Source of the DNA: an uncultured cyanobacterium
Lineage (GTDB): Bacteria; Cyanobacteriota; Cyanobacteriia; Cyanobacteriales; CAWUOF01
Assembly (NCBI GenBank): GCA_963744145.1
Contig: CAVUSO010000001.1
Location: forward strand, 768,001 to 832,000
DNA length: 64,000 nucleotides
Direction of reading: 5' to 3'
Position numbers and translations under genes: made by a program. The notes below the pieces were generated by a model. That model had not been told where the DNA came from, ran no database searches, and saw only the letters and a list, made by a program, of their open reading frames with translations. Shown here in pieces: positions 1,876 to 50,636 of the stretch (positions are counted from its first letter, which is position 1; every line of letters begins with the position of its first letter).

Positions 1876-2475
1876 ATGATTGCTAATCCTCAAAACTTTC
1901 AAAAAATGACAGCGGTACAATACCTAGAATGGGAAGCTAAACAAGAACTTCGCTATGAATATATTGATGGGGAAATTTTAGCGATGACAGGGGGTACTAT
2001 TCCTCATAACAAGATTTCCCTCAACTTCTATAGGACTTTGTACCCTCATTTACGTCAGAGAGGTTGTGAAGCTTATGTTTCAGATGTGAAAGTTCAGGAT
2101 AGTAATAATACTCGTTATTTCTATCCTGATTTAGTTGTCACTTGTCACCCTGATGATTTAAAAGCTAGTGATTTTCTTGAATATCCTAAAATTATTGTTG
2201 AGGTTCTTTCTCCCAGTACAGCAAGTTACGATTCTCCTATGGAGACGCTACGCGAACGCGGTGACAAATTCAAATATTATCGTCAGATTCCGACTTTACA
2301 AGAGTATGTTTTAGTCGATTCTGAATCCATCTCCGTTGAAGTTTATCATCGAGGAGAAGGTAAAATGTGGCTTTATTATGCTTATACAGCCGAAGAAGCG
2401 ATCGCATTCTTCAGTATTGAGTTTGAGTGTCCGATTGAAGTTTTGTATGAAGGAGTTAGCTTTGAGAAAGAGTGA
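1876..2475 (+). CDS. Uma2 family (DUF820) endonuclease with 8-aa insertion
   Basis: 'YEYIDGEI', 'YPDLVV', 'IVEVLSPST', 'LQEYVLVD'. Confidence 0.9.
2233..2256 (+). mobile_element. 24-nt small dispersed repeat inserted in frame
   Basis: TCTCCTATGGAGACGCTACGCGAA splits ACGAT^CGC; removing it restores the canonical 'YDRGDKF'. Confidence 0.8.
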
Positions 2476-2683
2476 GCGCAAAAATAGGTATTAAGAATTT
2501 CATTAAATTTGATCTGTCCGTCCCATTTCTGCTAAACTAGACTCAGACTTGATTTAGGAGTCCAATAATTTATGAATTAGATCAACTTTTTGCAGCAGTT
2601 AACTACATTTTTCAACAGGGCATTTTCCAGTTAGATAAACTTGTACACTGTTAATATTTTCAGATTACCTTAAGGAACAAATT

Positions 2684-3256
2684 ATGATTGCTAATCCTCA
2701 ATACCCTCAAAAAATGACAGCTGAAGAATACCTAGAATGGGAAGCAAAGCAGGAATTTCGCCATGAATATGTTGATGGCGAAATTTTGGCAATGACAGGA
2801 AGTCCCCTTCCTCATAATGACATTGCTCTCAATTTATATACAGCACTAAGACCTCATTTGCGTCAGAGGGGTTGTCGAGTTAATGTATCAGATGTGAAAG
2901 TTCATGATAGTAAAAACAGTCGTTATTTCTATCCTGATTTAGTTGTTACTTGCGCCCCTGAAGACTTGAAAGCTCACAAATTTATTCAATATCCCAAAGT
3001 TATTATTGAAGTTCTTTCTCCTAGTACCGAAAATTACAACCGCACTAAAAAATTCAAATATTATCGTCAGATTCCCAGTTTACAAGAGTATGTTTTAGTA
3101 GATTCAGAAGAAATAGCTGTTGAGGTTTATCATCGAGGGGAAGGTAAAATGTGGCATTATTATGAATACGCAACCGGAGATGCGATCGCATTCTTCAGTA
3201 TCGAGTTTGAGTGTCCGATTGAAGTTTTGTATGAAGGGGTTAGTTTTGACCAATAG
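2684..3256 (+). CDS. Uma2 family endonuclease
   Basis: Tandem paralog of 1876..2475 with the same motifs. Confidence 0.9.
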   Translation: MIANPQYPQKMTAEEYLEWEAKQEFRHEYVDGEILAMTGSPLPHNDIALNLYTALRPHLRQRGCRVNVSDVKVHDSKNSRYFYPDLVVTCAPEDLKAHKFIQYPKVIIEVLSPSTENYNRTKKFKYYRQIPSLQEYVLVDSEEIAVEVYHRGEGKMWHYYEYATGDAIAFFSIEFECPIEVLYEGVSFDQ

Positions 3257-3297
3257 TAAAAATGGAGAAAGATTAACTTGTATGAGGAAGTCATAAA

Positions 3298-3903
3298 ATG
3301 TCTTATAGTCAGTTTACTTTAGAGACAGTTGAACAAGTTTTTGGGCTAAGTATTATTGAAAAGTTGGATATTTTTGCGACAGTATCGGAAGTTTCCATTA
3401 GTAATTTCTTAACACAGTGTTTGCAATATAATACTCCTTTAGCATTGGAAATTGCTACAGAGAAAGCGCGATCGGAGATGATTATTACACCAATTTTAAT
3501 TGAATTGAAACAGCAGTTTGAGTCTAAAATTAGTCTATTCTCAGGGAGAGAATTTAATGTGGATAGTCAACAAAGATTAATTGGTTATTGTGATTTTCTT
3601 ATTAGTAAATCTCCATCTCAATTGCTAATTAAATCACCGATCGCTGTAATTGTAAAAGCTAAAAATGATAATATTCAATCTGGGTTAGGTCAGTGTATTG
3701 CTGAAATGGTAGCAGCACAAATATTTAATCAGCGTCAGAATAATTCCCATCCAACTATTTATGGTTCTGTAACTACTGGAACTAACTGGAAGTTTATGCG
3801 ATTACTTGATACCATAGTTGAAATTGACCCTAATGAATATTTTCTCAACCATATCGGTAAGTTAATGGGTATATTAAGAAGTTTTATTGAATCAGGAGAG
3901 TAG
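3298..3903 (+). CDS. Conserved cyanobacterial PD-(D/E)XK-fold hypothetical protein
   Basis: 'TEKARSEMIITPIL', 'GYCDFLIS', 'GLGQCIAEMVAAQ', 'GSVTTGTNWKF'. Confidence 0.7.
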   Translation: MSYSQFTLETVEQVFGLSIIEKLDIFATVSEVSISNFLTQCLQYNTPLALEIATEKARSEMIITPILIELKQQFESKISLFSGREFNVDSQQRLIGYCDFLISKSPSQLLIKSPIAVIVKAKNDNIQSGLGQCIAEMVAAQIFNQRQNNSHPTIYGSVTTGTNWKFMRLLDTIVEIDPNEYFLNHIGKLMGILRSFIESGE

Positions 3904-3953
3904 TCCAAGTCTTTTTATTGACTTAATTCTTGGCGATTGCTCTCCTGCTAATT

Positions 3954-4580
3954 TCATCGGATCTGTCTTACCCAATTTCGGATAGCTTGTCTAATTGCTC
4001 GTCTTCCATTTGGACGAGATTGGTCAATTATTGAGGGAATTTCTTGCACTCGCAACATGGGAAAAATTGAGCTAGTTTCTACTTCCACATATTTCTCATT
4101 TTGGAGTTGATAAATTTTCAATTCACCAGAATCATAACACCAAATTTCTGGTATACCTAAACGAGCGTAAATGGGAAAGCGATTTAAAGATTTACTGGTT
4201 AAATCGATTTCTAAAGCTAAGTCAGGAGGAGGATCTTGATTCAAGTCAAACTTTAATTGACCCCTGACTCTAGCTTCATTTTGAAAATAAAAACAGTTAT
4301 CTGGTTCAATTCCAGCTTTGCTAATTTCCCGTTTCCAAGTAGTTGATCCGTAACTTTCATAATTAATTTCTAGTTCTTCTGATATGTCTTTAATTGCATC
4401 ACTAATAGATTCTTTGTAATACTCATGTTCAGGTAATGGGGTCATAATTTCCAAAGTTCCGTTATCGTAAGCAACTCGTGCAGCACGAGTTTGACCTAAG
4501 TCAATTAGTAAATTTTCAAATTGCTGCCAACTAATATCGTATAAGATCACGCGATCGGCACGGTGTTCGGTCAGTTGCAT
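3954..4580 (-). CDS. Uma2 family endonuclease
   Basis: 'ISWQQFE', 'GIEPDNCFY', 'PPPDLALEIDLTS', 'LGIPEIW'. Confidence 0.9.
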   Translation of the reverse strand: MQLTEHRADRVILYDISWQQFENLLIDLGQTRAARVAYDNGTLEIMTPLPEHEYYKESISDAIKDISEELEINYESYGSTTWKREISKAGIEPDNCFYFQNEARVRGQLKFDLNQDPPPDLALEIDLTSKSLNRFPIYARLGIPEIWCYDSGELKIYQLQNEKYVEVETSSIFPMLRVQEIPSIIDQSRPNGRRAIRQAIRNWVRQIR

Positions 4581-5726: not shown

Positions 5727-7139
5727 ATGCTAGTTCAATTCACAATAGAAAATTTCCTATCATTTAGGGAAGCAAAGACCTTTAGTATGCTAGGTGTGAA
5801 CAATGATCTGAATCATCTAGAGCATCTGGGAGTGAATCTAGCAGGTAAAGGGAAGTCTCTTCTACCTGTTGCTGGTATTTATGGTGCAAATGCAGCGGGC
5901 AAATCTAACCTCATTAAAGCCATTGATTTTGCAAAGGATTTAATCGTTGAAGGAACCCGTAGTGGACAATCTATCCCTGTTTCCCCATTCAAATTAGGTG
6001 ATTACAGTCAGAAACCTAGCCAATTTGAATTCATATTTACTTATCAAAACACGCTTTATTCATACGGGTTTAAGCTTAATTCCAGCCAAATATTAGAAGA
6101 GTGGCTTTATGGCACTCCTCCTGAAAAAAAGAGAGAGATACTTTACTTTGAACGAACTACTTCTGAGCAGAAAGAAACCATAGTAGAATATGGAGCAACC
6201 CTCAGAGGTAGAGGTGAAAATAATAAGCAGTTTCTCGATTTTATTAGCAAAGGAACTCGCTCTAACCAACTCTTTTTAACGGAAGCTGTAGAACGCAATG
6301 TTAACCTATTAATACCTATTTTTGACTGGTTCAAAAAAGTTCTGACTATAATTCCGGCTGAATCTGATTATACAGATTTAGAAATTGGCATATTAGGCAG
6401 CATAGAATTTACTACTTTTCTGAGCGACTTTTTAAAATTTGCTGGTACAGGGATTGATTCGATCGGATTAGATGAAGTCACACTTGATTTTGATTCTCAC
6501 TTTCCAGAGATGCCCAAAAGTATGCGTGAGAAACTTAACCAGCAACTTGCTGAAGCTGGTGCAAATTCTGTTGTAATGATTGAGAATTCTCTCAGAAAAA
6601 AAAGATATCTTTTGATGAAAGGAGAACAAGAGAAAATAAATTTAATGCAGATTAAAACTAAACATCGCCATGAAAACGGTCAACTTGTCGATTTTTCAAT
6701 CGATGAGGAATCAGAAGGAACACAACGTTTAATTAATCTAATTCCAGTTCTATTTGTTTTAAGGAAAAATCCTGAGAAAGTTATATTGCTAGATGAACTT
6801 GATCGTCGATTACATCCTTTATTATCACGTCAATTTTTGGAGTTTTTTCTACAATGCAAAACGGAAAATAGTAGAAGTCAGCTAATTTTTACAACTCATG
6901 ACAGTAACTTACTTGACTTAGATATACTACGTCGAGATGAAATTTGGTTTGTCGAAAAAAATCAGCAGGGAGTTTCACATCTTTACTCCTTAGCAGAATT
7001 CAAGATTAGACCTGATCTCAAAATTGAGAAAGGATATTTGAATGGTCGATTTGGAGCGATTCCATTCTTTGGTGATATTCACAGTTTAGGTTGGGTCGAT
7101 TGTCAAGCAGAACCTGCTATTAGGATCACAAAGGTTTGA
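5727..7139 (+). CDS. AAA_21/RloA-like ABC-type ATPase
   Basis: Walker A GANAAGKS, 'ESEGTQR', 'LLDELDRRLHP', 'QLIFTTHD', 'YLNGRFGAIP'. Confidence 0.85.
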   Translation: MLVQFTIENFLSFREAKTFSMLGVNNDLNHLEHLGVNLAGKGKSLLPVAGIYGANAAGKSNLIKAIDFAKDLIVEGTRSGQSIPVSPFKLGDYSQKPSQFEFIFTYQNTLYSYGFKLNSSQILEEWLYGTPPEKKREILYFERTTSEQKETIVEYGATLRGRGENNKQFLDFISKGTRSNQLFLTEAVERNVNLLIPIFDWFKKVLTIIPAESDYTDLEIGILGSIEFTTFLSDFLKFAGTGIDSIGLDEVTLDFDSHFPEMPKSMREKLNQQLAEAGANSVVMIENSLRKKRYLLMKGEQEKINLMQIKTKHRHENGQLVDFSIDEESEGTQRLINLIPVLFVLRKNPEKVILLDELDRRLHPLLSRQFLEFFLQCKTENSRSQLIFTTHDSNLLDLDILRRDEIWFVEKNQQGVSHLYSLAEFKIRPDLKIEKGYLNGRFGAIPFFGDIHSLGWVDCQAEPAIRITKV

Positions 7140-13898: not shown

Positions 13899-15747
13899 AT
13901 GACCCATCAAGTTTCCGATGAAATTTCTCCAGAAGTTGTTGATGAAATTCCCCAGGAAATTCCCCAGGAAATTCCCTATGATGACTTAGTGGAGAACGGG
14001 AAGAAACCAATCCGCAGTTCTGGGGGAAAAAAAAGGATTGGTTTAGCGCTCATTGGTGTGCTGTTACTTACCGCGGTGGGGTTTCTGGTGATCCGCAACC
14101 TAGCTACTCCTAAACTTGAAAAAGCTGGAAGATACGGTGCGAAGGGACAACAAGTAACACCTGTAACAGTAGCAACTGTGATCCAAAAAACAGTTCCTTT
14201 ACAATTACAAGCAGTTGGTAATGTTCAATCCAGTTCTACAGTATCAGTTACACCCCAAGCAAGTGGAATTATCACTGGAGTGTATTTCCAGAAAGGTCAG
14301 GAGGTAAGCAAAGACGCAACTTTTGTTTACACTTGACGATCGCACACAAGGTGCTGCGATTGAGCAGGCTCAAGGGGTGATCGCTAAAGACCAAGCTCTG
14401 GTAGGACAAGCTCGAGCTACTTTAGCTAAAGACCTAGGACAAGTAGAGCAAGCTCGAGCTACTTTAGCTAAAGACCTAGGACAAGTAGAGCAAGCTCGAG
14501 CTACTTTAGCTAAAGATCAAGCGATGGTGCGACAAGCTCATGCAACTTTAGCAAAGGATGAAGCGCAAGCAGATTACGCTCAGGCGCAGAACAAGCGTTA
14601 TGGTGATCTGTACAATGAAGGTGAAATTAGCCAGGATACAGCTCAACAGTACGCTACCAACTATCGATCAAGTCAGGCAACACTTCAAGTAGATCAAGAA
14701 GCGATCGCTAATGCTGAACAAGTCGTTAAAGGTGATCAAGTAGCGATCGACAATGCTCAACAAGTCGTCAAAGGTGATCAAGTAGCGATCGACAATGCTC
14801 AACAAGTCGTCAAAGGTGATCAAGAAGCGATTAAAAATGCTGAAGCTGTTGTCAGTAGTGACCAAGCTGCGTTGAAAAGCGTCCAAGTGCAATTGTCCTA
14901 TAGCAAAATTTATGCACCAATTGATGGTCTAGCTGGAAACGTTCTAGTTACTGAAGGTAACGTAGTTCAAGCTAACAGTACCACCCCCCTAGTTACCATC
15001 ACCCAGATTCACCCGATTCAGGTTTCCTTTTCAATCCCTGAATCCAATCTGCCTGCGGTGCAAAAACGTCTTCAGAATGGCAGACTTAAGGTTGACGTCA
15101 CCTTCCCTGACAGCACTCAATCAATACCCGGTACATTGACTTTTGTCAATAACACAGTTGATCCTACTACAGGGACAATCCAACTAATTGGCGATTTTGA
15201 TAATACTCAGGGAAAACTTTTTCCTGGTCAATTTGTCAATACTACCCTGACGCTAGCTGAAGAACCGGATGCGATTGTAGTTCCCGACCAATCTGTGCAA
15301 AATGGACCAAATGGACAGTTTGTTTTTGTCGTTAAACCTGACATGACCGTGGAAAATGTGCCCGTAGTTGTCAGCAACAGTGTTGATGGATTAGATGTAG
15401 TACAAAAAGGACTGCAACCTGGTGATCAGGTAGTAACAGACGGACAAGCAAATCTAGTATCAGGTAGTTCCATTAGCATCAAAACTGGAGCAGGTGCTGC
15501 TGATAGTGATGATTCAACTAGTTCCGTTCGCATTAATACGGGGAAAAATTCTGCTAAGGATAATACTCCAAATTCAGCGGGTAATAATGACAAAGATAGT
15601 AAAGAGAAAGCGGGTAAACAAAATGATCCTGGGAACAATAAGGTAAGCGGTAATGATGCAAATCCAAGTGGCAATCAGACTTGGAAATCAGGGAGAAAGA
15701 GAAAAGCCAAAGAAGACCAATCCTCACCATCAACTGGAGGGAACTAA
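13899..15747 (+). CDS. RND efflux periplasmic adaptor (MdtA-like), frameshift at ~14315
   Basis: Two overlapping ORFs join as 'GQEV..GQLLFTLD'; 'IYAPIDG', 'VDPTTGT', 'LFPGQF'. Confidence 0.85.
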
Positions 15748-37147: not shown

Positions 37148-37630
37148 TCAATTAGAACTCTCTGGTAATTGATTAGGTTGAAAAACTAGGATTGATTTAT
37201 CATCAGTATCTATAACCCAACCTAACTGTGTTCCGTGTTTAATAGAGAAAAGAATTTTGTTAATTATCTTAGTAGTAGATTGCTCTGGTGATAAAATTTC
37301 AATTATCCAATCTGGGGCAATTTCGACTTTATTAGCAATTTCTCCATTTGGGTCAATCGGAATCCGTGACCATTCAAATACTGCAAGATCGGGCACAATT
37401 GAAAGCCCCCCAAATGTACAACGTAATTCGGTAAAAGCACGAGCTAATTTTTGAGGTCTTCCAATTTGATTTATCGCAGGTGCTAAATCAGTTTGAATTA
37501 TACTATGTTTTCCTTGAGGCATCGGTTTTTGATAAATTTCTCCATCAATGTACTCACTAGCGGGTTTGGTTTCTGGTAATTGCAAAAACTCAGCTAAAGA
37601 TATCTGTGATTTATTTATTGATAAGACCAT
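37148..37630 (-). pseudogene. Uma2 endonuclease, C-terminally truncated
   Basis: Near-identical to 38434..38997 but lacks its last ~27 aa. Confidence 0.8.
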
Positions 37631-37645
37631 GTTTAGTACCTCTGA

Positions 37646-38209
37646 TTAAGTTAAATACAGACATTGAAATAAACTATTCACTGAAATTTGCCAATCACCT
37701 AATACATCTAAGCCTGTTAAAATTTCATCACCTGATTTAACAATCGGGGCGCGATCGCGTTCAAAAACTATCACAGATTCATCATCAGGATTCATAAACC
37801 AACCTAATTTTGTACCATGATTTAAACAAAAAGTAATTTTCTTAATTACCCGACTAGCAGATTGTTCAGGAGAGAGAATTTCAATTGTCCAATCGGGCGC
37901 AATTTCAAAGCGATCGGCAATTCTTCCTTTCTGATCTTTAGGAATACGCGACCATTCAAATACTGTCACATCGGGCACAACTGAACCACCACCAAAAGTG
38001 CAGCGTAATTCAGGAAAAGCACAAACTAATTTTTGAGGTTCACCTACTTGCGAAATTACATCTAATAAATATTTTTGTAATCGACTGTGTTTTCCTTGGG
38101 GCATAGGTTTTTGATAAATATCTCCGTCAATATAATCGCTAGCAGGTTCAGTTTCTGACAATGACAAAAACTCTTGTAATGAAATTTTCTGAGATGATTG
38201 AACTATCAT
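37646..38209 (-). CDS. Uma2 endonuclease (MIVQ-type)
   Basis: 'QKPMPQGKHS', 'PELRCTFG', 'APDWTIEILSP'. Confidence 0.9.
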   Translation of the reverse strand: MIVQSSQKISLQEFLSLSETEPASDYIDGDIYQKPMPQGKHSRLQKYLLDVISQVGEPQKLVCAFPELRCTFGGGSVVPDVTVFEWSRIPKDQKGRIADRFEIAPDWTIEILSPEQSASRVIKKITFCLNHGTKLGWFMNPDDESVIVFERDRAPIVKSGDEILTGLDVLGDWQISVNSLFQCLYLT

Positions 38210-38360
38210 AAGTCCTCCTGAAATCAACCTAACGAACAAATTATCTGTGGTTATTGTGATTAGTTCTGCTCTTTGGTTTTCATAGATAATAGCACATCTT
38301 CAGGCTGTAAAGGTGAAGGAGGTTGAGAAATACCTGGGAAGAATCATCTTCAAAAAACAA
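38206..38360 (-). pseudogene. Helicase 3' remnant
   Basis: Patchwork match to 40822-40868, 41163-41178 and 41329-41352, plus extra sequence shared with 44941-45025. Confidence 0.75.
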
Positions 38361-38433
38361 CCGCACGCTCTCGCGTTCACCCCTACAATTAACTGAACTG
38401 TATTGAAATATGGATGGGATTGACAGAATTTAT

Positions 38434-38997
38434 TTAAAAAATCAACCAGGAAAATATATCTGCTGCTGAAATTTGCCAGCTTGCTAATACATCTAGCACA
38501 GGTAAAATATCTGTATTAGATTTACTTTCTGGTAATTGATTAGGTTGAAAAACTAGGATTGATTTATCATCAGTATCCATAACCCAACCTAACCGTGTTC
38601 CGTGTTTAATAGAGAACAGAATTTTGTTAATTATCTTAGTAGTAGATTGCTCTGGTGATAAAATTTCAATTATCCAATCTGGGGCAATTTCGACTTTATT
38701 AGCAATTTCTCCATTTGGGTCAATCGGAATCCGTGACCATTCAAATACTGCAAGATCGGGCACAATTGAACGCCCCCCAAATGTACAACGTAATTCGGTA
38801 AAAGCACGAGCTAATTTTTGAGGTCTTCCAATTTGATTTATCGCAGGTGCTAAATCAGTTTGAATTATACTATGTTTTCCTTGAGGTATCGGTTTTTGAT
38901 AAATTTCTCCATCAATGTACTCACTAGCAGGTTTGGTTTCTGGCAATTGCAAAAACTCAGCTAAAGATATCTGTGATTTATTGATTGATAATACCAT
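38434..38997 (-). CDS. Uma2 endonuclease (MVLS-type)
   Basis: Uma2 motifs, full length. Confidence 0.9.
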   Translation of the reverse strand: MVLSINKSQISLAEFLQLPETKPASEYIDGEIYQKPIPQGKHSIIQTDLAPAINQIGRPQKLARAFTELRCTFGGRSIVPDLAVFEWSRIPIDPNGEIANKVEIAPDWIIEILSPEQSTTKIINKILFSIKHGTRLGWVMDTDDKSILVFQPNQLPESKSNTDILPVLDVLASWQISAADIFSWLIF

Positions 38998-39012
38998 ATT
39001 TAGTACCTCTGA

Positions 39013-39579
39013 TTAAGTTAAATAGAGACATTGAAATAAACTATTCACTGAAACTTGCCAATCACCTAATACATCTAATCCTGTTAAAATTTCATCACCT
39101 GATTTAACGACAGGATGGCGATCGCGTTCAAAAATTATCACAGATTCATCATCAGGATTCATAAACCAACCTAATTTTGTACCATAATTTAAACAAAAAG
39201 TAATTTTCTTAATTACCCGACTAGCAGATTGTTCAGGAGAGAGAATTTCAATTGTCCAATCTGGGGCAATTTCAAAACGATTAACTGTTCTACCATTAGC
39301 TAAACGAGGAATACGCGACCATTCAAATACTGTCACATCGGGCACAACTGAACTACCCCCAAAAGTACAGCGTAATTCAGGAAAGGCATAAGCTAATTTT
39401 TGCGGTTTAGCTATCTGATTAATAGCTGATACTAGCTCACCTTGGATTATACTGTGTTCTCCTTGAGGCATAGGTTTTTGATAAATATCTCCATCAATGT
39501 AATCGCTAGCGGGTTCGGTTTCTGGTAATTGCAAAAACTCAGCTAAAGACATCTGCGATTTATTGATCGATAATACCAT
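39013..39579 (-). CDS. Uma2 endonuclease (MVLS N-terminus, MIVQ-type body)
   Basis: Uma2 motifs; mosaic of neighbouring copies. Confidence 0.9.
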   Translation of the reverse strand: MVLSINKSQMSLAEFLQLPETEPASDYIDGDIYQKPMPQGEHSIIQGELVSAINQIAKPQKLAYAFPELRCTFGGSSVVPDVTVFEWSRIPRLANGRTVNRFEIAPDWTIEILSPEQSASRVIKKITFCLNYGTKLGWFMNPDDESVIIFERDRHPVVKSGDEILTGLDVLGDWQVSVNSLFQCLYLT

Positions 39580-39594
39580 ATTTAGTACCTCTGA

Positions 39595-40161
39595 TTAAGT
39601 TAAATAGAGACATTGAAATAAACTATTCACTGAAACTTGCCAATCACCTAATAGCTCTAAACCTGTTAAAATATCATCACCAGATTTGACAACCGGATGG
39701 CGATCGCGTTCAAAAACTGTCACAGATTCATCATCAGGATTCATAAACCAACCTAATTTTGTACCATGATTTAAACAAAAAGTAATTTTCTTAATTACCC
39801 GACTAGCAGATTGTTCAGGAGAGAGAATTTCAATTGTCCAATCGGGCGCAATTTCAAAGCGATTAGCTATTCTACCATTAGCTAAACGAGGAATACGCGA
39901 CCATTCAAATACTGTCACATCGGGCACAACCGAACCACCACCAAAAGTACAGCGTAACTCAGGAAAAGCACAAACTAATTTTTGAGGTTCACCTACTTGC
40001 GAAATTACATCTAATAAATATTTTTGTAATCGACTATGTTGTCCTTGTGGCATAGGTTTTTGATGAATTTCTCCGTCATCAATATAATCGCTAGCAGGTT
40101 CGGTTTCTGGCAATGACAAAAACTCTTGTAATGAAATTTTCTGAGATGATTGAACTATCAT
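39595..40161 (-). CDS. Uma2 endonuclease (MIVQ-type)
   Basis: Uma2 motifs; ATG follows GGAGG. Confidence 0.9.
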   Translation of the reverse strand: MIVQSSQKISLQEFLSLPETEPASDYIDDGEIHQKPMPQGQHSRLQKYLLDVISQVGEPQKLVCAFPELRCTFGGGSVVPDVTVFEWSRIPRLANGRIANRFEIAPDWTIEILSPEQSASRVIKKITFCLNHGTKLGWFMNPDDESVTVFERDRHPVVKSGDDILTGLELLGDWQVSVNSLFQCLYLT

Positions 40162-40261
40162 AAGTCCTCCTAAAATAAACCTAACGAACAAATTATCTGT
40201 GGTTCCCGCTTTTGTCCTTCTACGATTTATTGATCGATAATACCATATTTAGTACCTCTGA

Positions 40262-40825
40262 TTAAGTTAAATACAGACATTGAAATAAACTATTCACTGA
40301 AACTTGCCAATCACCTAATACATCTAATCCTGTTAAAATTTCATCACCTGATTTAACAACCGGAGCGCGATCGCTTTCAAAAATTATCACAGATTCATCA
40401 TCAGGATTCATAAACCAACCTAATTTTGTCCCATGATTTAAACAAAAAGTAATTTTCTTAATTACCCGACTAGCAGATTGTTCAGGAGAGAGAATTTCAA
40501 TTGTCCAATCGGGCGCAATTTCAAAGCGATCGGCGATTCTTCCTTTCTGATCTTTAGGAATACGTGACCATTCAAATACTGTCAAATCGGGTACAACTGA
40601 ACCACCACCAAAAGTACAGCGTAATTCAGGAAAAGCATAAGCTAATTTTTGAGAGTTACCAACTGAATTAATCTTAGTTCCTAAATTCATTTGCAAAATG
40701 CTATGTTTTCCCTGGGGCATAGGTTTTTGATAAATTTCTCCGTCAATGTAATCGCTAGCAGGTTCGGTTTCTGGCAATGACAAAAACTCTGGTAATGAAA
40801 TTTTCTGAGATGATTGAACTATCAT
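40262..40825 (-). CDS. Uma2 endonuclease (MIVQ-type)
   Basis: ATGA overlap with the helicase stop codon. Confidence 0.9.
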   Translation of the reverse strand: MIVQSSQKISLPEFLSLPETEPASDYIDGEIYQKPMPQGKHSILQMNLGTKINSVGNSQKLAYAFPELRCTFGGGSVVPDLTVFEWSRIPKDQKGRIADRFEIAPDWTIEILSPEQSASRVIKKITFCLNHGTKLGWFMNPDDESVIIFESDRAPVVKSGDEILTGLDVLGDWQVSVNSLFQCLYLT

Positions 40826-43515
40826 AAGTCCTCCTGAAATAAACCTAAAGAACACATTATCTGTGGTTCCCGCTTTTGGGCTTCTTCACTGATAATACAC
40901 AAGCGATCGTCCATCCGCAAAGCGACAACTAATTCTGCTAAGTGTAGATCACTAATGCCACTTTTTAATTGACGGTTTATCGTATCGATCGCTGATTGTC
41001 GTAAGGGATAGCGATAAATTTCGTCAATCGCTTTTAATAATTCTTCAGATATAAATATAGTACCCTTCATCTCTTGAGCATAACGCTTAAGCCGTTCATA
41101 AGTGCGAAATCTTGCCCCAGAAGGTCGTCCTAATTGACCACCAGCATGATTCTCTTCCTCTGCGATTAGTTCCGCTCCTTTTTTAACTAATTCATGGTGT
41201 TGATCGTTTCTAGGAATCGCGGGAGTATCTTCTTCACAAGCAGCCATTCGTAGCACTGCTAACTGTGATTGAGTAACACTATTACCATGACGATCGATCC
41301 ATGCTAGGGAATCATTACCCTCAGTTGTTTTCATATATAATAGCACCCCTTCTGTCAATTTTTCATCTCGTTCTGGTTTCCAGTCACCGCAGGTTTTCAA
41401 CACCTCGATTAATGCTTTAGCATCCGCTTGTAAATCACGCTTGAGAATTTTTAGATCAAATAGGGTAGAATGCAGCCACTTAAACCGCTTTTGATAACGA
41501 GTTTGATATTCTTGATAAACTAATTCAGCTCGCTGACGAAAACTATCTTCTGGCTGTAATATCTGCTCTTTAACATCAGCAACTGATTCCTCTCCATCTT
41601 CTATTTCCAAATCAAATAATGTGGCAGCGATCGCATCTGGATCTTCATCATTATTATTGGTATCTAATAACTCTGCATCTTGGGTGCCAATCGGAATATC
41701 TAACTGATTTTCAATTGCATATAAATAGATAAAGTTCCGCAGAATATGGCGTTTAATGGATTGAATAAAAGTCACACCACTGCTTTCGAGACGTTTAAAT
41801 ATATTTGTGCGTGAAAATCCCATTAACCGTCTTCCACCACGAAATAAGCTATTAAGTTGGTGTTGTTCAGTTTCAGTAGGTGGTTGTTTATGCTTTGTAG
41901 CAATGTAATTACCTAACCCATAACGAGGCAAATTTAGTGCATTAATGACTTCTACTACTGACTCAGAATAAAGCTGAGAGTAAGCATCAATATTACTACT
42001 ATTCAAATTAAACTTAACCGTTCTTGGTAAGCGATCGGGAAAATAAGATTGACTACCATTGGCAAATTTTAGATATTTCCGACCAACTGCATCAGTCTCA
42101 GCATAGTTATCTTTAATAAACGAACGAGTACGTCTCACCATGTATCGTTTCATTAACTCTCGCCAATCATCAGGATGTTCACTTTTTTCAAAAGCTGCTA
42201 GCGATCGCACCGAGCATTGATGTTTTCTAATAAACTCTAATTCTCCATCAGCACCTCCTCCTAACTGATTGATTAATCCTTCTGGTCTAACCCCTAAATC
42301 CTGATCTTCTGGTACAAATAACCGCAATTGAGCAGAAAGATCGAGATAAGTTTTATTATAAGGAGTAGCAGATAGCAGAATACATTTACTTTCATTCGCA
42401 GCAATATATTCCTGAATCGCTCGATATCTTTTCCCGTCCCGATTACGCAAGTTATGACTTTCATCTATTAGTACAATGCGGTAACGACGTAAATCAGGCA
42501 AATGATTCTGCACTTTACTAATTGACATCACCTTCGCATATAGACGGTAATTATCTACATATTCCTGCCACATTTTTACTAAGTTTTTTGGACAGATAAT
42601 TAGAGTTTCTAATAAACAGTCTTCTTGTAAAATTTTAGCCAGTGCAGTTCCAACCAACGTTTTACCTAAACCAACCACATCACCCACTAACACCCCACCG
42701 CGTCTAGTCACATGACGAGCAGCTAATTGCACAGCAGCTTTTTGGAAGTCGAATAAATTGTTAAATTCGCGAGGAATCCGAAACTCAGAAAGTCCAGCGA
42801 TCGCTTCGTGAGACAAATGATAAGCAATCTTTAAATATATGTGATAAGGTGGAATTAATTCTTCCCTAGCCCAACTTTGATCAATTATTTCTGCTAGTTC
42901 CTTAGAAATATCTACACAACCATAATCTTGCCAGCGATCGTTAAACCACTTGTGCAATTTATCACCAGCATCATGGTCAAGAATATCAACATTCAATTCA
43001 CCTTGTTTAGCCAATCCAGGTAAAGTTAAATTACTACTACCCAAAAAACCGACAATGGGAGTATTAGGATCATTACGGTGAATTAAATATAACTTAGCAT
43101 GAAGAGGATAGCGCAGAAACAATTTAATAATTACCTTCTGAGTTTTTAACTGATTACTCAACCGTCTCAATCCAGCTTCATCTTGATTAGTGGGCGCACC
43201 AATTATTAATTGCTGACGAAATTCAGCAGCTATTCTTTTTTTTAAACGGAGAATAGCACTATTATCAATCCGCTGTTCACCACCAGCAAGAGTAAAAGCT
43301 GCATAAACTTCATCACTAGGTAAACTTTGCATTCCCACCAATAGACGACAGCAAGCACTTTCTCCACCCACATACTGTTCAACCAATCCGTCAATTTTTT
43401 GCCAACCTCTGAGATTAAAGTAACCAACACAAAAATCAGCCCGATAAGAAACTTTCAATGTCTCTCGTAAACTCGGTAGCAGAGATAAATTAATGTTGTC
43501 AAATATCCGTGGCAT
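40822..43515 (-). CDS. PLD-nuclease + SNF2-type helicase fusion, apparently lacking the Helicase_C domain
   Basis: 'LHAKLYL..GSSNLT...GELN'; Walker A 'DVVGLGKT', 'IDESHN', 'SATP'; no motif IV-VI region. Confidence 0.85.
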   Translation of the reverse strand: MPRIFDNINLSLLPSLRETLKVSYRADFCVGYFNLRGWQKIDGLVEQYVGGESACCRLLVGMQSLPSDEVYAAFTLAGGEQRIDNSAILRLKKRIAAEFRQQLIIGAPTNQDEAGLRRLSNQLKTQKVIIKLFLRYPLHAKLYLIHRNDPNTPIVGFLGSSNLTLPGLAKQGELNVDILDHDAGDKLHKWFNDRWQDYGCVDISKELAEIIDQSWAREELIPPYHIYLKIAYHLSHEAIAGLSEFRIPREFNNLFDFQKAAVQLAARHVTRRGGVLVGDVVGLGKTLVGTALAKILQEDCLLETLIICPKNLVKMWQEYVDNYRLYAKVMSISKVQNHLPDLRRYRIVLIDESHNLRNRDGKRYRAIQEYIAANESKCILLSATPYNKTYLDLSAQLRLFVPEDQDLGVRPEGLINQLGGGADGELEFIRKHQCSVRSLAAFEKSEHPDDWRELMKRYMVRRTRSFIKDNYAETDAVGRKYLKFANGSQSYFPDRLPRTVKFNLNSSNIDAYSQLYSESVVEVINALNLPRYGLGNYIATKHKQPPTETEQHQLNSLFRGGRRLMGFSRTNIFKRLESSGVTFIQSIKRHILRNFIYLYAIENQLDIPIGTQDAELLDTNNNDEDPDAIAATLFDLEIEDGEESVADVKEQILQPEDSFRQRAELVYQEYQTRYQKRFKWLHSTLFDLKILKRDLQADAKALIEVLKTCGDWKPERDEKLTEGVLLYMKTTEGNDSLAWIDRHGNSVTQSQLAVLRMAACEEDTPAIPRNDQHHELVKKGAELIAEEENHAGGQLGRPSGARFRTYERLKRYAQEMKGTIFISEELLKAIDEIYRYPLRQSAIDTINRQLKSGISDLHLAELVVALRMDDRLCIISEEAQKREPQIMCSLGLFQEDL

Positions 43516-43606: not shown

Positions 43607-44040
43607 ATGTATTGCCAATATTGGATCAGCTCTTCCCGATCGCTACCTCGATCTAAGACGGGGTTACAAAAAAAAGAAACCGAATTTCCTCGCAACATTT
43701 GGAAAGGATTATATTGTTTACACTTTCTTGGTCAAATTGGGGCAAGTTTGGGATTAGAGCTGTAAAGAAGAAGAAGTTTTAATTTTTGAGAAAGTTAAAG
43801 AACTAATAGATGCAGAAGATATTTCTGGTCTAATCCGGTTCAGTTAAGAATGTTTTGGGAGATATCGGCAAAGAAGGGCGAAGCATTCGGATATAATATT
43901 AACGGACTTGAGCAATAAATGATCGCCCGAATGCTTCGCCCCTACAGTTAATCGCATTCCTCTACAAATGCACCATGAAATAAGAAATATCTCTCTCGAC
44001 CATTAACCACTAAATATATTTGGTCTTTTTACTCAATTAG
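43607..44040 (+). pseudogene. Degraded copy of 36590..37093 interrupted by a MITE
   Basis: Matches 36602-36742, 36925-36992 and 37065-37155. Confidence 0.85.
43832..43951. repeat. REP-containing MITE copy
   Basis: CGGTTCAGTTAAG...GGGCGAAGCATTCGG...CCGAATGCTTCGCCCCTACAGTTAA. Confidence 0.85.
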
Positions 44041-44044
44041 ATCT

Positions 44045-44297
44045 CAATACGGTTCAGTTAATAATATTTTGAGCGATATCGGCGAAGAAGGGTGAAGCAT
44101 TCGGATCTAATATTAACGCCCTTCGACTACGCCCTTCGACTCCCCCTTCGACTACCCTTCGACTACGCCCTTCGACTCCGCTCAGGGTAAACTCAGGGCA
44201 AGCGCTCAGGGCAAGGCTCAGGGAGCACTCAGGGTAAAATTTAAGTTATAACTTATCGCCCGAATGCTTCACCCCTACAATTCACTGAACTGGATGG
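44045..44297. mobile_element. REP-containing MITE carrying the nested 24-nt array
   Basis: CAATACGGTTCAGTTAA...CCCCTACAATTCACTGAAC. Confidence 0.85.
44119..44238 (+). repeat. Five nested copies of a 24-nt element
   Basis: 5x CCCTTCGACT followed by 5x CTCAGGG; 120 nt in total. Confidence 0.9.
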
Positions 44298-44309
44298 AAA
44301 TATAAATGA

Positions 44310-44873
44310 TTAAGTTAAATATAGACATTGAAATAAACTATTCACTGCTACTTGCCAATCACCTAATACATCTAAGCCTGTTAAAATTTCATCACCTGAT
44401 TTAACAATCGGAGGGCGATCGCGTTCAAAAACTATCACAGATTCATCATCAGGATTCATAAACCAACCTAATTTTGTACCATGATTTAAACAAAAGGTAA
44501 TTTTCTTAATTACCCGACTAGCAGATTGTTCAGGAGAGAGAATTTCAATTGTCCAATCCGGCGCAATTTCAAAGCGATCGGCAATTCTTCCTTTCTGATC
44601 TTTGGGAATACGCGACCATTCAAATACTGTCACATCGGGCACAACTGAACCACCACCAAAAGTACAGCGTAATTCAGGAAAAGCATAAGCTAATTTTTGA
44701 GAGTTACCAACTGCATTAATCTTAGTTCCTAAATTCATTTGCAAAATGCTATGTTTTCCTTGGGGCATAGGTTTTTGATAAATATCTCCATCAATGTAAT
44801 CGCTAGCAGGTTCAGTTTCTGGCAATGACAAAAACTCTGGTAATGAAATTTTCTGAGATGATTGAACTATCAT
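44310..44873 (-). CDS. Uma2 endonuclease (MIVQ-type)
   Basis: Near-identical to 40262..40825. Confidence 0.9.
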   Translation of the reverse strand: MIVQSSQKISLPEFLSLPETEPASDYIDGDIYQKPMPQGKHSILQMNLGTKINAVGNSQKLAYAFPELRCTFGGGSVVPDVTVFEWSRIPKDQKGRIADRFEIAPDWTIEILSPEQSASRVIKKITFCLNHGTKLGWFMNPDDESVIVFERDRPPIVKSGDEILTGLDVLGDWQVAVNSLFQCLYLT

Positions 44874-45083
44874 AAGTCCTCCTGAAATCAACCTAACAAA
44901 CAAATTATCTGTGGTTACTCTGATTAGTTCTGCTCTTTGGTTTTCATAGATAATAGCACGTCTTCAGGCTGTAAAGGTGAAGGAGGTTGAGAAGTACCTG
45001 GGAAGAATCATCTTCAAAAAACATCTCACCAGTTCCGACTACTTCAGCATTTTCTTGTAACCGTTGCTGAAAACGCGATCGCT
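44870..45083 (-). pseudogene. Helicase C-terminal remnant
   Basis: Encodes 'QQRLQENAEVVGTGEMFFEDD' plus pieces matching the 3' end of 40822..43515. Confidence 0.75.
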
Positions 45084-45510
45084 ACCTCGATCCAAGACGA
45101 GGTTACAAAAAAGAAACCGAATTTCCTCGCAACAGTTGGAAAGGATTATATTGTTGACACTTTCTTGGTCAAATTGGGGCAAGTTCAGTTAATTGTAGGG
45201 GCGAAGCATGTTTAGCGACAATTGAACAATCAAAGCAGTAATATTATATCCGAATGCTGATGCCGTAGGCATCGCTACGCGAACGCCCTTCTTCGCCGAG
45301 ATCTCCCAAAAAAAGATGGTAACTGAACCGTATTGATTTATGGTCAAGCTCTATCTTGGGAATTAAATAAGTCTAAATCAAATCGGCTCATCCCCAAAAT
45401 AGAAGATCCTCTTATGCGATCGCATTCCTCTACAAACGCACCCTGAAATAAGAAATATCTCTCTCGACCATTACCGACTAAATATACTTGGTCTTTTTAC
45501 TCAATTATAT
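45077..45510 (+). pseudogene. Second degraded copy of 36590..37093 interrupted by a MITE
   Basis: 45077-45185 matches 36631-36739; 45342-45505 matches 36988-37153. Confidence 0.85.
45183..45335. mobile_element. REP-containing MITE with one small insert
   Basis: GTTCAGTTAATTGTAGGGGCGAAGCAT...TAACTGAACCGTATTG. Confidence 0.85.
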
Positions 45511-45512
45511 TT

Positions 45513-45692
45513 CAATACGGTTCAGTTAAGAATATTTTGGGAGATATCGGCGAAGAAGGGCGTTCGCGTAGCGATGCCTACGGCATCAGCATTCGGATAT
45601 AATATTAACAGGCTTGAGCAATAAATGATCGCCCGAATGCTCTGCCTACGGCACGCTACGCGAACGCCCCTACAGTTAACTGAATTGTATTG
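45513..45692. mobile_element. REP-containing MITE with two small inserts
   Basis: TIRs CAATACGGTTCAGTTAA and TTAACTGAATTGTATTG; flanks AATTATATTT and AATTATATCT (9/10 TSD). Confidence 0.85.
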
Positions 45693-45700
45693 AATTATAT

Positions 45701-48154
45701 CTATTTTATTTCATCAGGAATAGCCCACTCTTGTTCAATTCTCTCTAACTCTTTAGCCGCTCCCAATTGCTGAAAGATTTGGTGGGCTGTATCGTAATGT
45801 TGTTGAGCAAGTTCAGGATTACCGCGCCGTCGTTCAAGTTGAGCTAGATCGTAGTTAGCTTCAGCAATATGCCAAGTCATTCCCAATTCTTGCACTTTTA
45901 CCAAAGCTTCTTTTAATAATTTTTCGGCTTTATCTAAATTGCCTTTACGGAGTTCATTTTCTCCTAAACAACCTATTGATATAGCGATACCTTGCCAATC
46001 GCCCAATTCTGTCCTAAGTTCTAAAGATTGGCGATAGAGGCGTTCGGCGGCATCCCAGTTCCCTCGCTTAAGCTCGATATCTCCCAACATATCCCAAGAT
46101 GTTGCCATCCCACTTTTATTTTCCTTTTCTTGTTCAATGGCTAAGGCATCTTGAAAATATTTCTCTGCTAAATCCCAATTTCCCGCATCTCTATAGACTC
46201 TACCGATTTGCCTTAAGCAAATGGGACGGTCATCGTCATCAACTTTGGGTAAAATCTGCTCATATAAGTCTTTTAATAAATTCCAATGCCCCCAAGGACG
46301 AAGATATTCTTCTAACTTCCCCATCACTAAGCTAGAAGCCTCGCTGTAATTTCCTAACTGAAAAGCAAAATATTGTGCTTCTAAAATTGGTTGCAAATCT
46401 GCTAAATTCTGAGGATTTTCGACATTCTTACCCGAACTATAAAACTTATAAATGCTTTCCATCAATTTGGGTAATTCTGCTTGATATTCCTTTTGCAAAA
46501 ACTCCACAATGACACGATGCAGGTCATAAAAATCTTCTCCCTGTTGTTCATCGTAACGACTTTGCACCAAACTGCTATCTAGCAAGCCCTTTAAAATTAA
46601 TTGTGTTTCCCTAATTTCTATTTCTGTAAATTCAGCAGGTTCTTCTAATATTCCTGCCATTTCAAATCTGTCATCTTTTTCCCAATCATCGGTGTACAAT
46701 CGCAAGAAAGTTAAACCTCGAATATCTATCCCTACCCGCAAAACACACATCCGTCGCAGTAAATCTCTTGCTGCTTCGCTTTGTCGCGATAGTTGTTCTC
46801 GCAAGATTGGTTCTATCTTGCGCGTTACTAATTCTGGATGTTTGCGAAGATATCCCGGTTTATCTTTCCCCAAACTAATTAATTGGTCGCATTCTGGCGC
46901 TTGAGCTTGACCTGCTTGAGGATGACTAGCTGGATGCAAAATATCTTCTAGGTTATCCAAAAAAAATATGCAGCGATGTTTGCGTAAACCAGTCAAAATC
47001 AGGTTAATTTTTTGGGTGGCATCTTTAATAGTTTCGTTAACTTCTATTTGCAACCAGCGCAACAGCAATCCCGCTACTTCATCAAAACTGCTACCTGTTT
47101 GTGCTTTAAAACACAGGGCACAATGATAAGGACTATCTGCGGTTAAGGTTTCTGTGGTGAATTTTGCACCTAATGCTTCTAGTAGTTTAGTCCCTAGACT
47201 AGATTTGCCAATACCCCCTTGTCCTACCAATACCAGCATTTTCAGGGTTGAATCTGGTGTCAGTAATTGATCTTTGAGTTGTTGTAACAGTTCATCACGC
47301 CCCACCCATACGGGAACTGGACGAATTGCTTCTATCCCAAATAGTCTTTTTTCTTTAGCTTGACTAGGAGTAACTGCGATCGCGGTTTGCTGTTCAACCG
47401 CACCTAAAGTTGGCCAAAAATTAATCGGTTCTCCTGCGGTATTAGTGCGAAATCGCTGCCGAAACGTACTCAGTTTAGGATCATTTCGCAGTTCGTCATT
47501 AATAAAAGCATCTAAATTTTTACTATTAATCCATTTTCCCGGCGGATTTTGCTCAACACTCAATCCCCGTAACAGTAGAGATGTCAGTAAACCATGACCT
47601 TCCACTCCTATTGCTTCCTCGAACTTGCGACAAGCTGCAATAAAGGAACGATTCACATTTTCTCGACCCCGATTTTGGGGATTTGCCTGATCAAACGTGA
47701 GATTAGTAAATTCTCCACTATGGCAACAGTCTAACCAAACTATCTGATTGCGGACTGGACTATCAATTAATTCCTCAAATAGCCAGTCAAAGGGAATACC
47801 CCATTTTTCTCTACTCGGATCGACATCACTAGGGGCTAAATATCCCTTAAATTTATTTCTTGGTAAGGGTTGTTGTAACCCATGTCCCGCAAAAAACAAC
47901 AATGCTGTCTCTGGACAATCATCACCAGGATTAAATAGCTGAGAGATTTCCTCTCGGAGACTTTTCCCTTTCACCGTCCCCTTTTCTTCAACCTGATTAG
48001 CCCCATTCTGGTAGATTTCAGGTAGCAATGTCACCTCAAAATTACCGTGCTTTCTCAGGAGACGGGCAATTTCCTCTGCATCCCTTGCAGCATATTGCAA
48101 ATTTTGGAAATAAGGATATCGATTGATCCCCACTACTAACCCTGACCTGATCAT
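45701..48154 (-). CDS. Caspase-family peptidase + P-loop NTPase (NB-ARC-like) + TPR protein
   Basis: 'FFAGHG' and 'LDCCHSG' dyad; 'VGRDEL', 'GQGGIGKS', 'FLDNLE'; C-terminal TPRs. Confidence 0.88.
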   Translation of the reverse strand: MIRSGLVVGINRYPYFQNLQYAARDAEEIARLLRKHGNFEVTLLPEIYQNGANQVEEKGTVKGKSLREEISQLFNPGDDCPETALLFFAGHGLQQPLPRNKFKGYLAPSDVDPSREKWGIPFDWLFEELIDSPVRNQIVWLDCCHSGEFTNLTFDQANPQNRGRENVNRSFIAACRKFEEAIGVEGHGLLTSLLLRGLSVEQNPPGKWINSKNLDAFINDELRNDPKLSTFRQRFRTNTAGEPINFWPTLGAVEQQTAIAVTPSQAKEKRLFGIEAIRPVPVWVGRDELLQQLKDQLLTPDSTLKMLVLVGQGGIGKSSLGTKLLEALGAKFTTETLTADSPYHCALCFKAQTGSSFDEVAGLLLRWLQIEVNETIKDATQKINLILTGLRKHRCIFFLDNLEDILHPASHPQAGQAQAPECDQLISLGKDKPGYLRKHPELVTRKIEPILREQLSRQSEAARDLLRRMCVLRVGIDIRGLTFLRLYTDDWEKDDRFEMAGILEEPAEFTEIEIRETQLILKGLLDSSLVQSRYDEQQGEDFYDLHRVIVEFLQKEYQAELPKLMESIYKFYSSGKNVENPQNLADLQPILEAQYFAFQLGNYSEASSLVMGKLEEYLRPWGHWNLLKDLYEQILPKVDDDDRPICLRQIGRVYRDAGNWDLAEKYFQDALAIEQEKENKSGMATSWDMLGDIELKRGNWDAAERLYRQSLELRTELGDWQGIAISIGCLGENELRKGNLDKAEKLLKEALVKVQELGMTWHIAEANYDLAQLERRRGNPELAQQHYDTAHQIFQQLGAAKELERIEQEWAIPDEIK

Positions 48155-48371: not shown

Positions 48372-48627
48372 CGATTCAGTTAACTGTAGGGGCAAAGCAT
48401 TTCGGCGAATAAATTATAGCCCAAACGAAGAATAATGTGACCGAAATGCTTTGCCCTCACCATCTATGCAACCAACAGATCAACTATATATAATAAAATC
48501 CAATTTAGATATCTCGGCGCAGAAATGGGTGAAGCATTCGGATCTAATCAGGGAGCACTCAGGGTAAAATTTAAGTTATAAATTATCGCCCGAATGCTTC
48601 ACCCCTACGATTAACTGAACTGGATGG
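48372..48627. mobile_element. Composite REP-containing MITE
   Basis: Two REP doublets; inverted relative to 33166-33410. Confidence 0.8.
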
Positions 48628-48639
48628 AAATATAAATGA

Positions 48640-50601: not shown

Positions 50602-50636
50602 CCCTTCGACTCCGCTCAGGGAACACTCAGGGCAAG
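50602..50636 (+). repeat. 24-nt element plus an orphan right half
   Basis: CCCTTCGACTCCGCTCAGGGAACA followed by CTCAGGGCAAG. Confidence 0.85.

Follow-up and report, generated by a model that had tools for sequence, protein, structure and literature searches.

The small dispersed repeats (SDRs) of cyanobacteria are a known kind of element. SDR1 to SDR8, which are 21 to 27 nt long, have reportedly been described from Nostoc punctiforme and its relatives (by Elhai and colleagues in 2008); they are said to be embedded in minitransposons and heptamer repeats without target duplication, to lie nested within other SDRs and, in the case of SDR4 to SDR6, to form predicted hairpins backed by compensatory changes. 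Elements of the IS200/IS605 family move by "peel and paste": insertion takes place on the 3' side of a fixed tetra- or pentanucleotide, and the elements have a tnpA gene as well as two subterminal hairpins. IS1397 and ISKpn1 (IS3 family) insert into the loop of the palindromic units found in BIMEs (bacterial interspersed mosaic elements), and the Rickettsia palindromic elements, like the GC clusters and double-hairpin elements of fungal mitochondria, are small, lineage-specific hairpins of about 40 to 150 nt. We know of no repetitive extragenic palindromes (REPs) that nest in their own loop and of no Rickettsia or fungal mitochondrial element whose loop is shared across phyla. According to the summary in PMC5861425, SDRs were not found outside the Nostocaceae; a passage of PMC4390886 has SDR5 inserting inside the highly iterated palindrome HIP1, and the origin of SDRs is called unexplained in a passage of PMC3116915. 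Very small dispersed repeats have thus been without a mechanism since 2008. Here, we describe a 24-nt hairpin element that lies nested five deep within itself at positions 44119-44238 (plus strand) of the window, the whole 64,000-nt stretch of contig CAVUSO010000001.1 from an uncultured cyanobacterium that was analyzed.

Motif searches and peeling resolve the nest into five units of 24 nt, called U1 to U5 from the outside inward. The left motif CCCTTCGACT occurs exactly at 44119, 44132, 44144, 44155 and 44168, with one further exact copy in the window at 50602; if one mismatch is allowed, the window has 8 occurrences where 2.28 would be expected, a number that 1 of 100 shuffles attained. The five left halves are followed by five right halves, marked by CTCAGGG at 44181, 44192, 44205, 44217 and 44228, a motif with 17 copies in the whole window where 4.95 would be expected, a count attained by none of 100 shuffles. 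A script was used to strip intact units, defined as the left motif and 3 nt followed by the right motif and 4 nt, one after another; it found exactly one such unit at each of five steps and left two 20-nt flanks as the only residue. The outermost unit, U1, consists of 44119-44131 and 44228-44238. U2 (44132-44227; left part 44132-44143, right part 44216-44227) enters U1 after nt 13, U3 (44144-44215; 44144-44154 and 44203-44215) enters U2 after nt 12, and U4 (44155-44202; 44155-44167 and 44192-44202), whose letters are those of U3, enters U3 after nt 11. U5 (44168-44191) enters U4 after nt 13; it is the sole uninterrupted 24-mer of the nest and would be its youngest layer. An earlier note on this DNA had described five left halves followed by five right halves, the regeneration of a complete 24-mer on removal of the innermost unit, five times in succession, and break points after nt 11 to 13 of the host copy without target duplication; the exact motif positions, the scripted peeling and the observed break points (13, 12, 11 and 13) bear this out. 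Nineteen positions are identical across U1 to U5, and variation is confined to position 11 (A or C) and the 4-nt tail (TAAA, AGCA, CAAG, CAAG and TAAA from U1 to U5). Tandem Repeats Finder reported two adjoining arrays with a period of 11 to 13 and no period-24 array in the nest; therefore, the 24-mers are not arranged head to tail.

The left halves retain 3, 2, 1 and 3 nt of the 3-nt spacer, and the extra nucleotides behind the right halves number 0, 2, 1 and 0 from the innermost outward. When the sequence is read as nested units, each pair adds up to 3 nt, and the displaced letters rebuild a spacer of the usual kind, with CG at its end. Taken in mirrored order, the break points of each of the four pairs complement one another (extras needed, 0, 1, 2 and 0; observed, 0, 1, 2 and 0), a fit given by 1 of the 12 distinct orders of the extras. 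Such complementarity is not predicted by two independent slippage arrays.

Further copies were sought by scanning a genome-contig collection (596 Gb) for the left motif, 1 to 4 nt and the right motif, a pattern that is blind to arrays made of left halves alone. The scan yielded at least 122 loci (here numbered L001 onward). Among the matches listed, the 20-nt core occurs in more than 15 phyla; they include Acidobacteriota, Bacteroidota, Chloroflexota, Patescibacteria, Spirochaetota, Verrucomicrobiota, Planctomycetota and Proteobacteria and also Clostridia, Nitrospirales, Gemmatimonadales, Armatimonadetes and others. L035, L038, L039, L042 (Nodularia), L053, L071 (Cuspidothrix), L117 and L120 are the cyanobacterial loci among them, and a plasmid of Nostoc flagelliforme, from a separate plasmid search, provides a ninth. 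Since about 280 chance matches are expected by arithmetic in the whole 596 Gb, the matches were checked for nonrandom features. Indeed, the spacer has 3 nt in 120 of the 130 matches listed (25% by chance) and reads NCG in 102 of them (1.6% by chance), and the tail follows pyrimidine-purine-purine in 116, 113 and 100 of the 130. BLAST with a 36-nt single-unit locus (E up to 10) gave no match in 50,697 phage records or in 5,426 complete genomes of Escherichia coli, negatives that cover the near-exact CCC/GGG core, i.e., roughly 18 or more matching bases. The distribution of the unit is wide but patchy. The earlier note had pointed to the SDRs described in cyanobacteria; the element agrees with these in length and setting, but its family is spread over many phyla. 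Several individual copies may be mentioned here. The 24-mer at 50602-50625 of the window recurs letter for letter, spacer and tail included, in two independent assemblies of Treponema saccharophilum (L012 and L124). In two different Flavobacteriaceae (L006 and L069), the unit lies in the same pyrH-frr intergenic spacer, so that some copies are old or retained. A cyanobacterial metagenome-assembled genome (L053) has two units in its rRNA operon, in the spacer that separates the end of the 16S gene from the two tRNA genes.

The unit has a stem of 3 to 4 bp, in which CCC(T) pairs with (A)GGG, a conserved loop of 14 nt (TTCGACTNCGCTCA) and a 3' tail of 4 nt. The left and right halves are the two sides of this hairpin, and the nesting point is the loop apex. 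Pairing was tested with the 25 unique members whose flanks the search pattern did not fix, three of which probably match by chance (window 14740; L076, a true tRNA end; and L062). The three loop-adjacent positions pair in 22, 22 and 19 of the 25 members (shuffle means, 18.1, 10.9 and 11.4), and 3, 0 and 0 of 1,000 shuffles reached these values. A larger alignment comprised 33 members: 2 from the window, 24 of the 25 just mentioned (without window 14740) and 7 of 110 unique CCC/GGG members. In a two-helix structure, 88.3% of its cells are paired versus 73.6% after shuffling, and the covariation score is 0.394 versus 0.137, with 0 of 500 shuffles reaching either value; slid controls were paired to 29 to 43%. 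At three stem pairs, which adjoin the invariant loop-closing T-A pair, both sides have changed in 12, 13 and 3 sequences of this alignment. The outer stem has 8 G-T pairs versus 3 A-C mismatches, and we lean weakly toward the plus strand as the strand that folds.

No Rfam family covers the unit: a search of 20 loci at E up to 1 returned true rRNA and tRNA and weak microRNA noise, and a search of the window at the gathering score returned rRNA and tRNAs only. A tRNA origin was considered and rejected, since the loop resembles a T-loop with the 3' strand but the 5' stem is unlike a T-stem and no tRNA model matches. The genuine tRNA 3' end at L076:9-34 (T-loop, 3' strand of the T-stem and acceptor strand) happens to contain the family loop with one mismatch. 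A hammerhead-like core on the minus strand was rejected by eye, the NGA of that core being absent, and derivation from 16S rRNA was dropped because a single 10-nt near-match at 25751 was all that was found.

A script that sought family stems split by extra DNA found, at L072:342-385 (Sphingomonadaceae), a CCC/GGG unit whose apex holds a 24-nt member of the family with another stem, a nest that slippage cannot have produced. At L012, the same locus as L124 on a plasmid, a unit stands directly behind the TTCGACT of a related hairpin. The same central site holds a small unrelated hairpin at L028:352-391 and a 42-nt insert at L101:328-389 and 397-458, inside a tandem array of 26- to 27-nt units, and inserts of 10 to 14 nt were found at L004, L020 and L047. 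Insert and host are co-oriented in 7 of 7 events (4 in the window, L123, L012 and L072). Moreover, units tend to occupy the tips of longer, locus-specific inverted repeats. We took the first match of each locus and set aside three of the 122 loci because their flanks were short, which left 119; in these, we looked for exact inverted repeats, 8 nt or longer, in the 35 nt to either side of the unit. Such a repeat was present at 17 of the 119 loci; among controls, it was present at 4 of 233 that were displaced by 150 nt (Mann-Whitney P = 1.3e-4) and at 7 of 353 with permuted partners; repeats of at least 12 nt surrounded 4 of the 119 versus 0 of the 233 shifted controls. Some units lie within real genes. 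The agmatine deiminase at L060 (340-500, minus strand) has 37 residues where a solved homologue has about 13, and this segment holds the unit at the tip of an 8-bp hairpin; the E1 dehydrogenase at L041 has, in a distant alignment, 13 extra residues around the unit. The unit length of 24 nt equals eight codons. As an in-frame extra segment, the unit was also noticed in a ChlI/ComM-like ATPase, a ThiS-MoaE protein and a GT4 enzyme (L014, L010 and L079).

The nest itself lies in the central loop region of an inverted repeat resembling a MITE (miniature inverted-repeat transposable element) at 44046-44296 (plus strand; folding and alignment), which has perfect 15-nt arm cores at 44090-44104 and 44260-44274 and folds with a z score of -3.06 (0 of 200 shuffles fold as well). 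A copy of a sister subfamily at 43826-43962 (plus strand; sequence and alignment) has no unit at all and serves as the empty reference. In an alignment of four MITE copies, the nest is one insertion relative to 43826-43962 and 45515-45692; the sister-subfamily loops have diverged to the right of the insertion point, and these two copies are thus an imperfect empty site. The wording of the earlier note, that near-colinearity with the MITE is restored when all five units are removed, is apt for that very reason. Another copy, at 48488-48630, stems from a segmental duplication whose flank is, as judged by eye, about 96% identical (about 4% different). Here, only the final 20 nt of the nest remain (48549-48568, plus strand; alignment), made up of a partial right half of U2 and the right half of U1; 107 nt, corresponding to 44112-44218, have been lost, and all left halves with them. 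The same two outer tails are kept in this remnant. Therefore, U1 and U2 are older than the duplication. As the tails are unchanged in the paralogue, they are not hypermutable, and since they are stable, the differences between layers are most likely inherited from different donor copies; the units probably had separate donors.

Some further features of these MITE copies were recorded. The junction of the 107-nt deletion at 48.5 kb has a single base of microhomology (T). Two copies carry an unrelated second 24-nt insert in the left arm (45563-45586, plus strand, and 45261-45284, minus strand), and one of them also has a near-mirror insert of 22 to 23 nt at the symmetric right-arm position (about 45642-45664, plus strand), in which the 3-nt loop of a small inner hairpin is not inverted. 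The copy at 43826-43962 has neither arm insert. The pattern suggests a further insertion polymorphism of small repeats. When the filled MITE (261 nt) was compared with plasmids by BLAST, nothing matched.

Taken together, we regard it as reasonably probable that the nest arose by serial insertion of units in the same orientation, without target duplication, into an exposed hairpin apex by a factor acting in trans. A first copy would have entered the central loop of the MITE-like inverted repeat, and four copies from different donors would then have entered, one after the other and the innermost last, the apex (positions 11 to 13 of 24) of the latest copy. The target would be an exposed single-stranded hairpin tip rather than a sequence word; the cut points fall within a 4-nt stretch on the 3' side of the apex. 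The 15-bp-armed inverted repeat around the nest would favor hairpin extrusion and so account for several insertions at a single place. Excision or copying of the unit, and its joining, would depend on an activity that is supplied in trans and patchily distributed. It may work on single strands, i.e., on DNA at a replication fork or in a cruciform or on RNA copied back into DNA, because inserts retain their orientation and what they enter is a structure, not a word. A single-strand transposase of the Y1/HUH type is the nearest known chemistry, but its defining target word was not found here, nor was its gene in the frames scanned. An HUH nick in the loop, as at rolling-circle origins, was also considered, but by reasoning it gives tandem and not nested units. 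The earlier note had proposed repeated targeted insertion of the element into its own center: repeated insertion is supported, but the general term hairpin apex suits the target better than the element's own center. A nest five units deep would directly record the rule of insertion, which is the whole unit, on the same strand, without duplication and at the apex within a range of 4 nt.

The complementary break points, the donor-like differences between units, the heterologous nest of L072 and the co-orientation in all seven events support repeated insertion rather than slippage. If slippage had made the nest, an array of left halves (period about 13) and an array of right halves (11 to 13) would have slipped independently and by coincidence both arrived at five copies, a picture that the arrays of Tandem Repeats Finder match exactly. 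Moreover, the 3 nt preceding the block, ACG, equal the spacer of U1 and would offer microhomology for slippage of the left halves, and surplus half copies are present at 50626-50636, L116 and L121, as is an exact 10-nt duplication in L123. However, slipped copies should start out identical and with one period, whereas the left periods are 13, 12, 11 and 13 and the right periods 11, 13, 12 and 11; these are complementary pairwise in mirrored order, with the correct letters included, and the right halves have three different tails. A slippage-type tandem repeat has the whole unit head to tail with one period, which is not what the nest looks like, and slippage cannot yield the nest of L072. We therefore consider independent slippage very unlikely. 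Copying in cis deserves somewhat more weight but is still rather unlikely. Here, an error of replication or repair at the hairpin, or gene conversion from a copy nearby, would re-copy the resident unit into its own apex without a free element or a dedicated enzyme. Five events at one site, in 64 kb that hold two loci, would be understandable in this way, as would the letter identity of U3 and U4 and the fact that no candidate enzyme was found nearby. Yet adjacent layers other than U3/U4 differ at 3 to 5 of the 5 variable positions and at 0 of the 19 core positions, which speaks against a resident template; the unchanged tails of the 48.5-kb paralogue make these differences look inherited from donors, and no template-switch path could be constructed that gives a unit inside a unit without junction homology.

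Could the hairpin instead be a functional module, such as a protein or RNA binding site, whose copies are kept by selection, with the nest as a by-product of recombination? A stem that covaries around 11 loop positions conserved in many phyla, and the shared pyrH-frr spacer of L006 and L069, would fit a function. Still, no Rfam family matches, the spread over coding regions (in frame), rRNA spacers (L053) and MITEs is typical of selfish insertion, and function alone would not create nesting; the chance that this explains the locus is slim. An assembly artefact, in which reads of a repeat family were collapsed or mis-joined, appears extremely improbable: a period of about 12 makes short repeats difficult to assemble, but every junction of the nest is unique, and the outer 20 nt recur at 48549-48568 with diverged flanks, which independently confirms part of the nest.

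Several observations weigh against serial insertion into hairpin tips. The 120-nt nest folds no better than its shuffles (z score, +0.62; 144 of 200 fold at least as well), and single units are thermodynamically unremarkable (z scores, -0.1 to -0.85), so the case for the hairpin is one of covariation. No layer has an empty orthologous site, and mobility is therefore deduced from the anatomy. Pfam searches of 41 of the 56 open reading frames (ORFs) of the window (at least 110 amino acids) found no Y1/HUH transposase, REP-associated tyrosine transposase (RAYT) or reverse transcriptase, and no transposase, HUH or reverse transcriptase family was found in 150 flank frames of L001 to L081 (of 215 candidates). 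The window has six insertion points, and the bases on their 5' side have no word in common, unlike the targets of IS200/IS605. In the 64 kb, just 2 loci hold intact units; for five insertions to fall together, a strong local bias would therefore be required, and none was demonstrated. Family-in-family nests among the 122 scan loci are L072, found by the script, and L012, found by eye.

Unequal numbers of halves and tandem copies count on the same side. The earlier note had named unequal left and right half counts at other loci as a sign of independent slippage, and such counts do occur, alongside the complementary breaks of the nest. A lone intact unit at 50602-50625 (plus strand; motif search and annotation), between the convergent genes of a pentapeptide-repeat protein and MreD, is directly followed by a surplus right half at 50626-50636 (plus strand; sequence), so that one left half faces two right halves in 50602-50636. 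The remnant at 48549-48568 holds right halves only, the right half is repeated in L116:129-174, and L121 has a partial surplus left half, twice. BLAST of a 50-nt nest core against plasmids (E up to 10) returned 14 records, of which only that of Nostoc flagelliforme is nest-like. This locus, L123:19994-20050 on plasmid pNFSY08, is the only other nest in Nostoc and can be read as two-deep; it can also be read as an exact 10-nt tandem duplication with a degenerate outer right half. Whole-unit tandem arrays exist in L089 and L101. The loci with unequal halves indicate that local duplication and deletion also act on these elements. A second copy within 100 nt is direct at 14 of the 122 loci and inverted at 18 (about 3 each by chance, by arithmetic); the nest itself has no inverted partner unit.

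The unit can now be compared with the systems named at the outset. It resembles the SDRs in its length of 24 nt, which is within their 21 to 27 nt, in its HIP1-rich cyanobacterial host and the lack of target duplication, in being embedded in a MITE-like repeat and, in L042, in heptamer-like repeats, and in having a hairpin supported by covariation, as for SDR4 to SDR6. As to dispersed copies like those of SDRs in Nostocaceae genomes, the observations are two loci in the window, one locus on a Nostoc flagelliforme plasmid and, among the matches listed, single hits in Nodularia and Cuspidothrix. In contrast to the confinement of SDRs to the Nostocaceae as given in the summary in PMC5861425, the core of the unit occurs in many phyla. 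In the searched text of PMC3184786, PMC3733652 and PMC2884548, a search by term found no mention of nesting, and our literature search, to which Elhai et al. 2008 did not belong, found no description of the nest and no printing of the core. With the REPs, their doublets (REPINs) and RAYT systems, the unit shares the character of a short extragenic nonautonomous hairpin, with plausible single-strand recognition. However, it has no GTAG or CGTC tag, and its ends vary in the 33-member alignment; its loop is conserved and the same across phyla while its stem varies. The inverted partners at 18 of 122 unit loci may correspond to the inverted doublets of REPINs. No RAYT gene was present in the scanned window ORFs or flank frames. 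IS200/IS605 elements are similar in lacking target duplications and in being hairpin dependent and strand specific, but the unit is only 24 nt long, its junction bases vary, the cut is in the loop apex of the target, and there was no Y1_Tnp hit among the scanned window ORFs. The preference for the apex of an extragenic hairpin recalls IS1397 and ISKpn1. Unlike the unit, these are complete insertion sequences that measure about 1.4 kb, encode a DDE transposase and make target duplications. Like the Rickettsia and fungal mitochondrial elements, the unit invades intergenic DNA and coding DNA in frame; it differs from them in being smaller (24 nt) and in having a loop shared across phyla.

Because this loop is shared across phyla, gene families can be correlated with whether sequenced genomes have the hairpin or lack it, which offers a workable way toward the missing factor. 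Insertions in frame and in rRNA spacers may be an unrecognized source of short protein insertions and of spurious "hypothetical proteins." A wider view is possible but doubtful: the 24-mer may represent a lineage of minimal hairpin elements that invade the tips of any hairpin across phyla, mobilized by an unrecognized integrase or by the loop itself. In that case, terminator-like stems, MITEs, coding loops and its own loop would be the targets, small-genome Patescibacteria would be among the hosts, and the mobilizer would be either a widely but patchily spread single-strand hairpin integrase or the conserved loop, catalyzing or templating the reaction. The unit would then be the smallest mobile DNA known.

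The nest is flanked by two minus-strand genes, one for an SNF2/PLD protein (ending on the 5' side at 43515) and one of the Uma2 family (stop at 44310). The Pfam finds in the window were Uma2 arrays, the SNF2/PLD protein, a caspase-STAND-TPR protein, Cas6, RND pumps, MreBCD and one DUF4277 ORF, and the flank-frame neighbors of the scan loci were ordinary genes. Genes of the Uma2 family (putative restriction endonucleases of about 190 amino acids) are arrayed at 37148-40855, 44310-44903 and 1876-4580, and seven of them lie in tandem with a spacing of 582 to 785 nt. Near these arrays are the genes for the SNF2/PLD protein (40822-43515), the caspase-STAND-TPR protein (45701-48154), an AbiEii-like AAA protein (5727-7139), a NERD protein and Cas6 (937-1710). 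This neighborhood resembles a defense island. The window contains 53 HIP1 octamers and an rRNA operon and has a G+C content of 39.6%; together with the Uma2 arrays, these features are consistent with a cyanobacterium of filamentous type. A 42-nt tandem repeat at 14362-14854 lies inside an HlyD-like ORF (14323-15747), and in its copies at 14687-14854, each unit contains HIP1-like GCGATCG sites.
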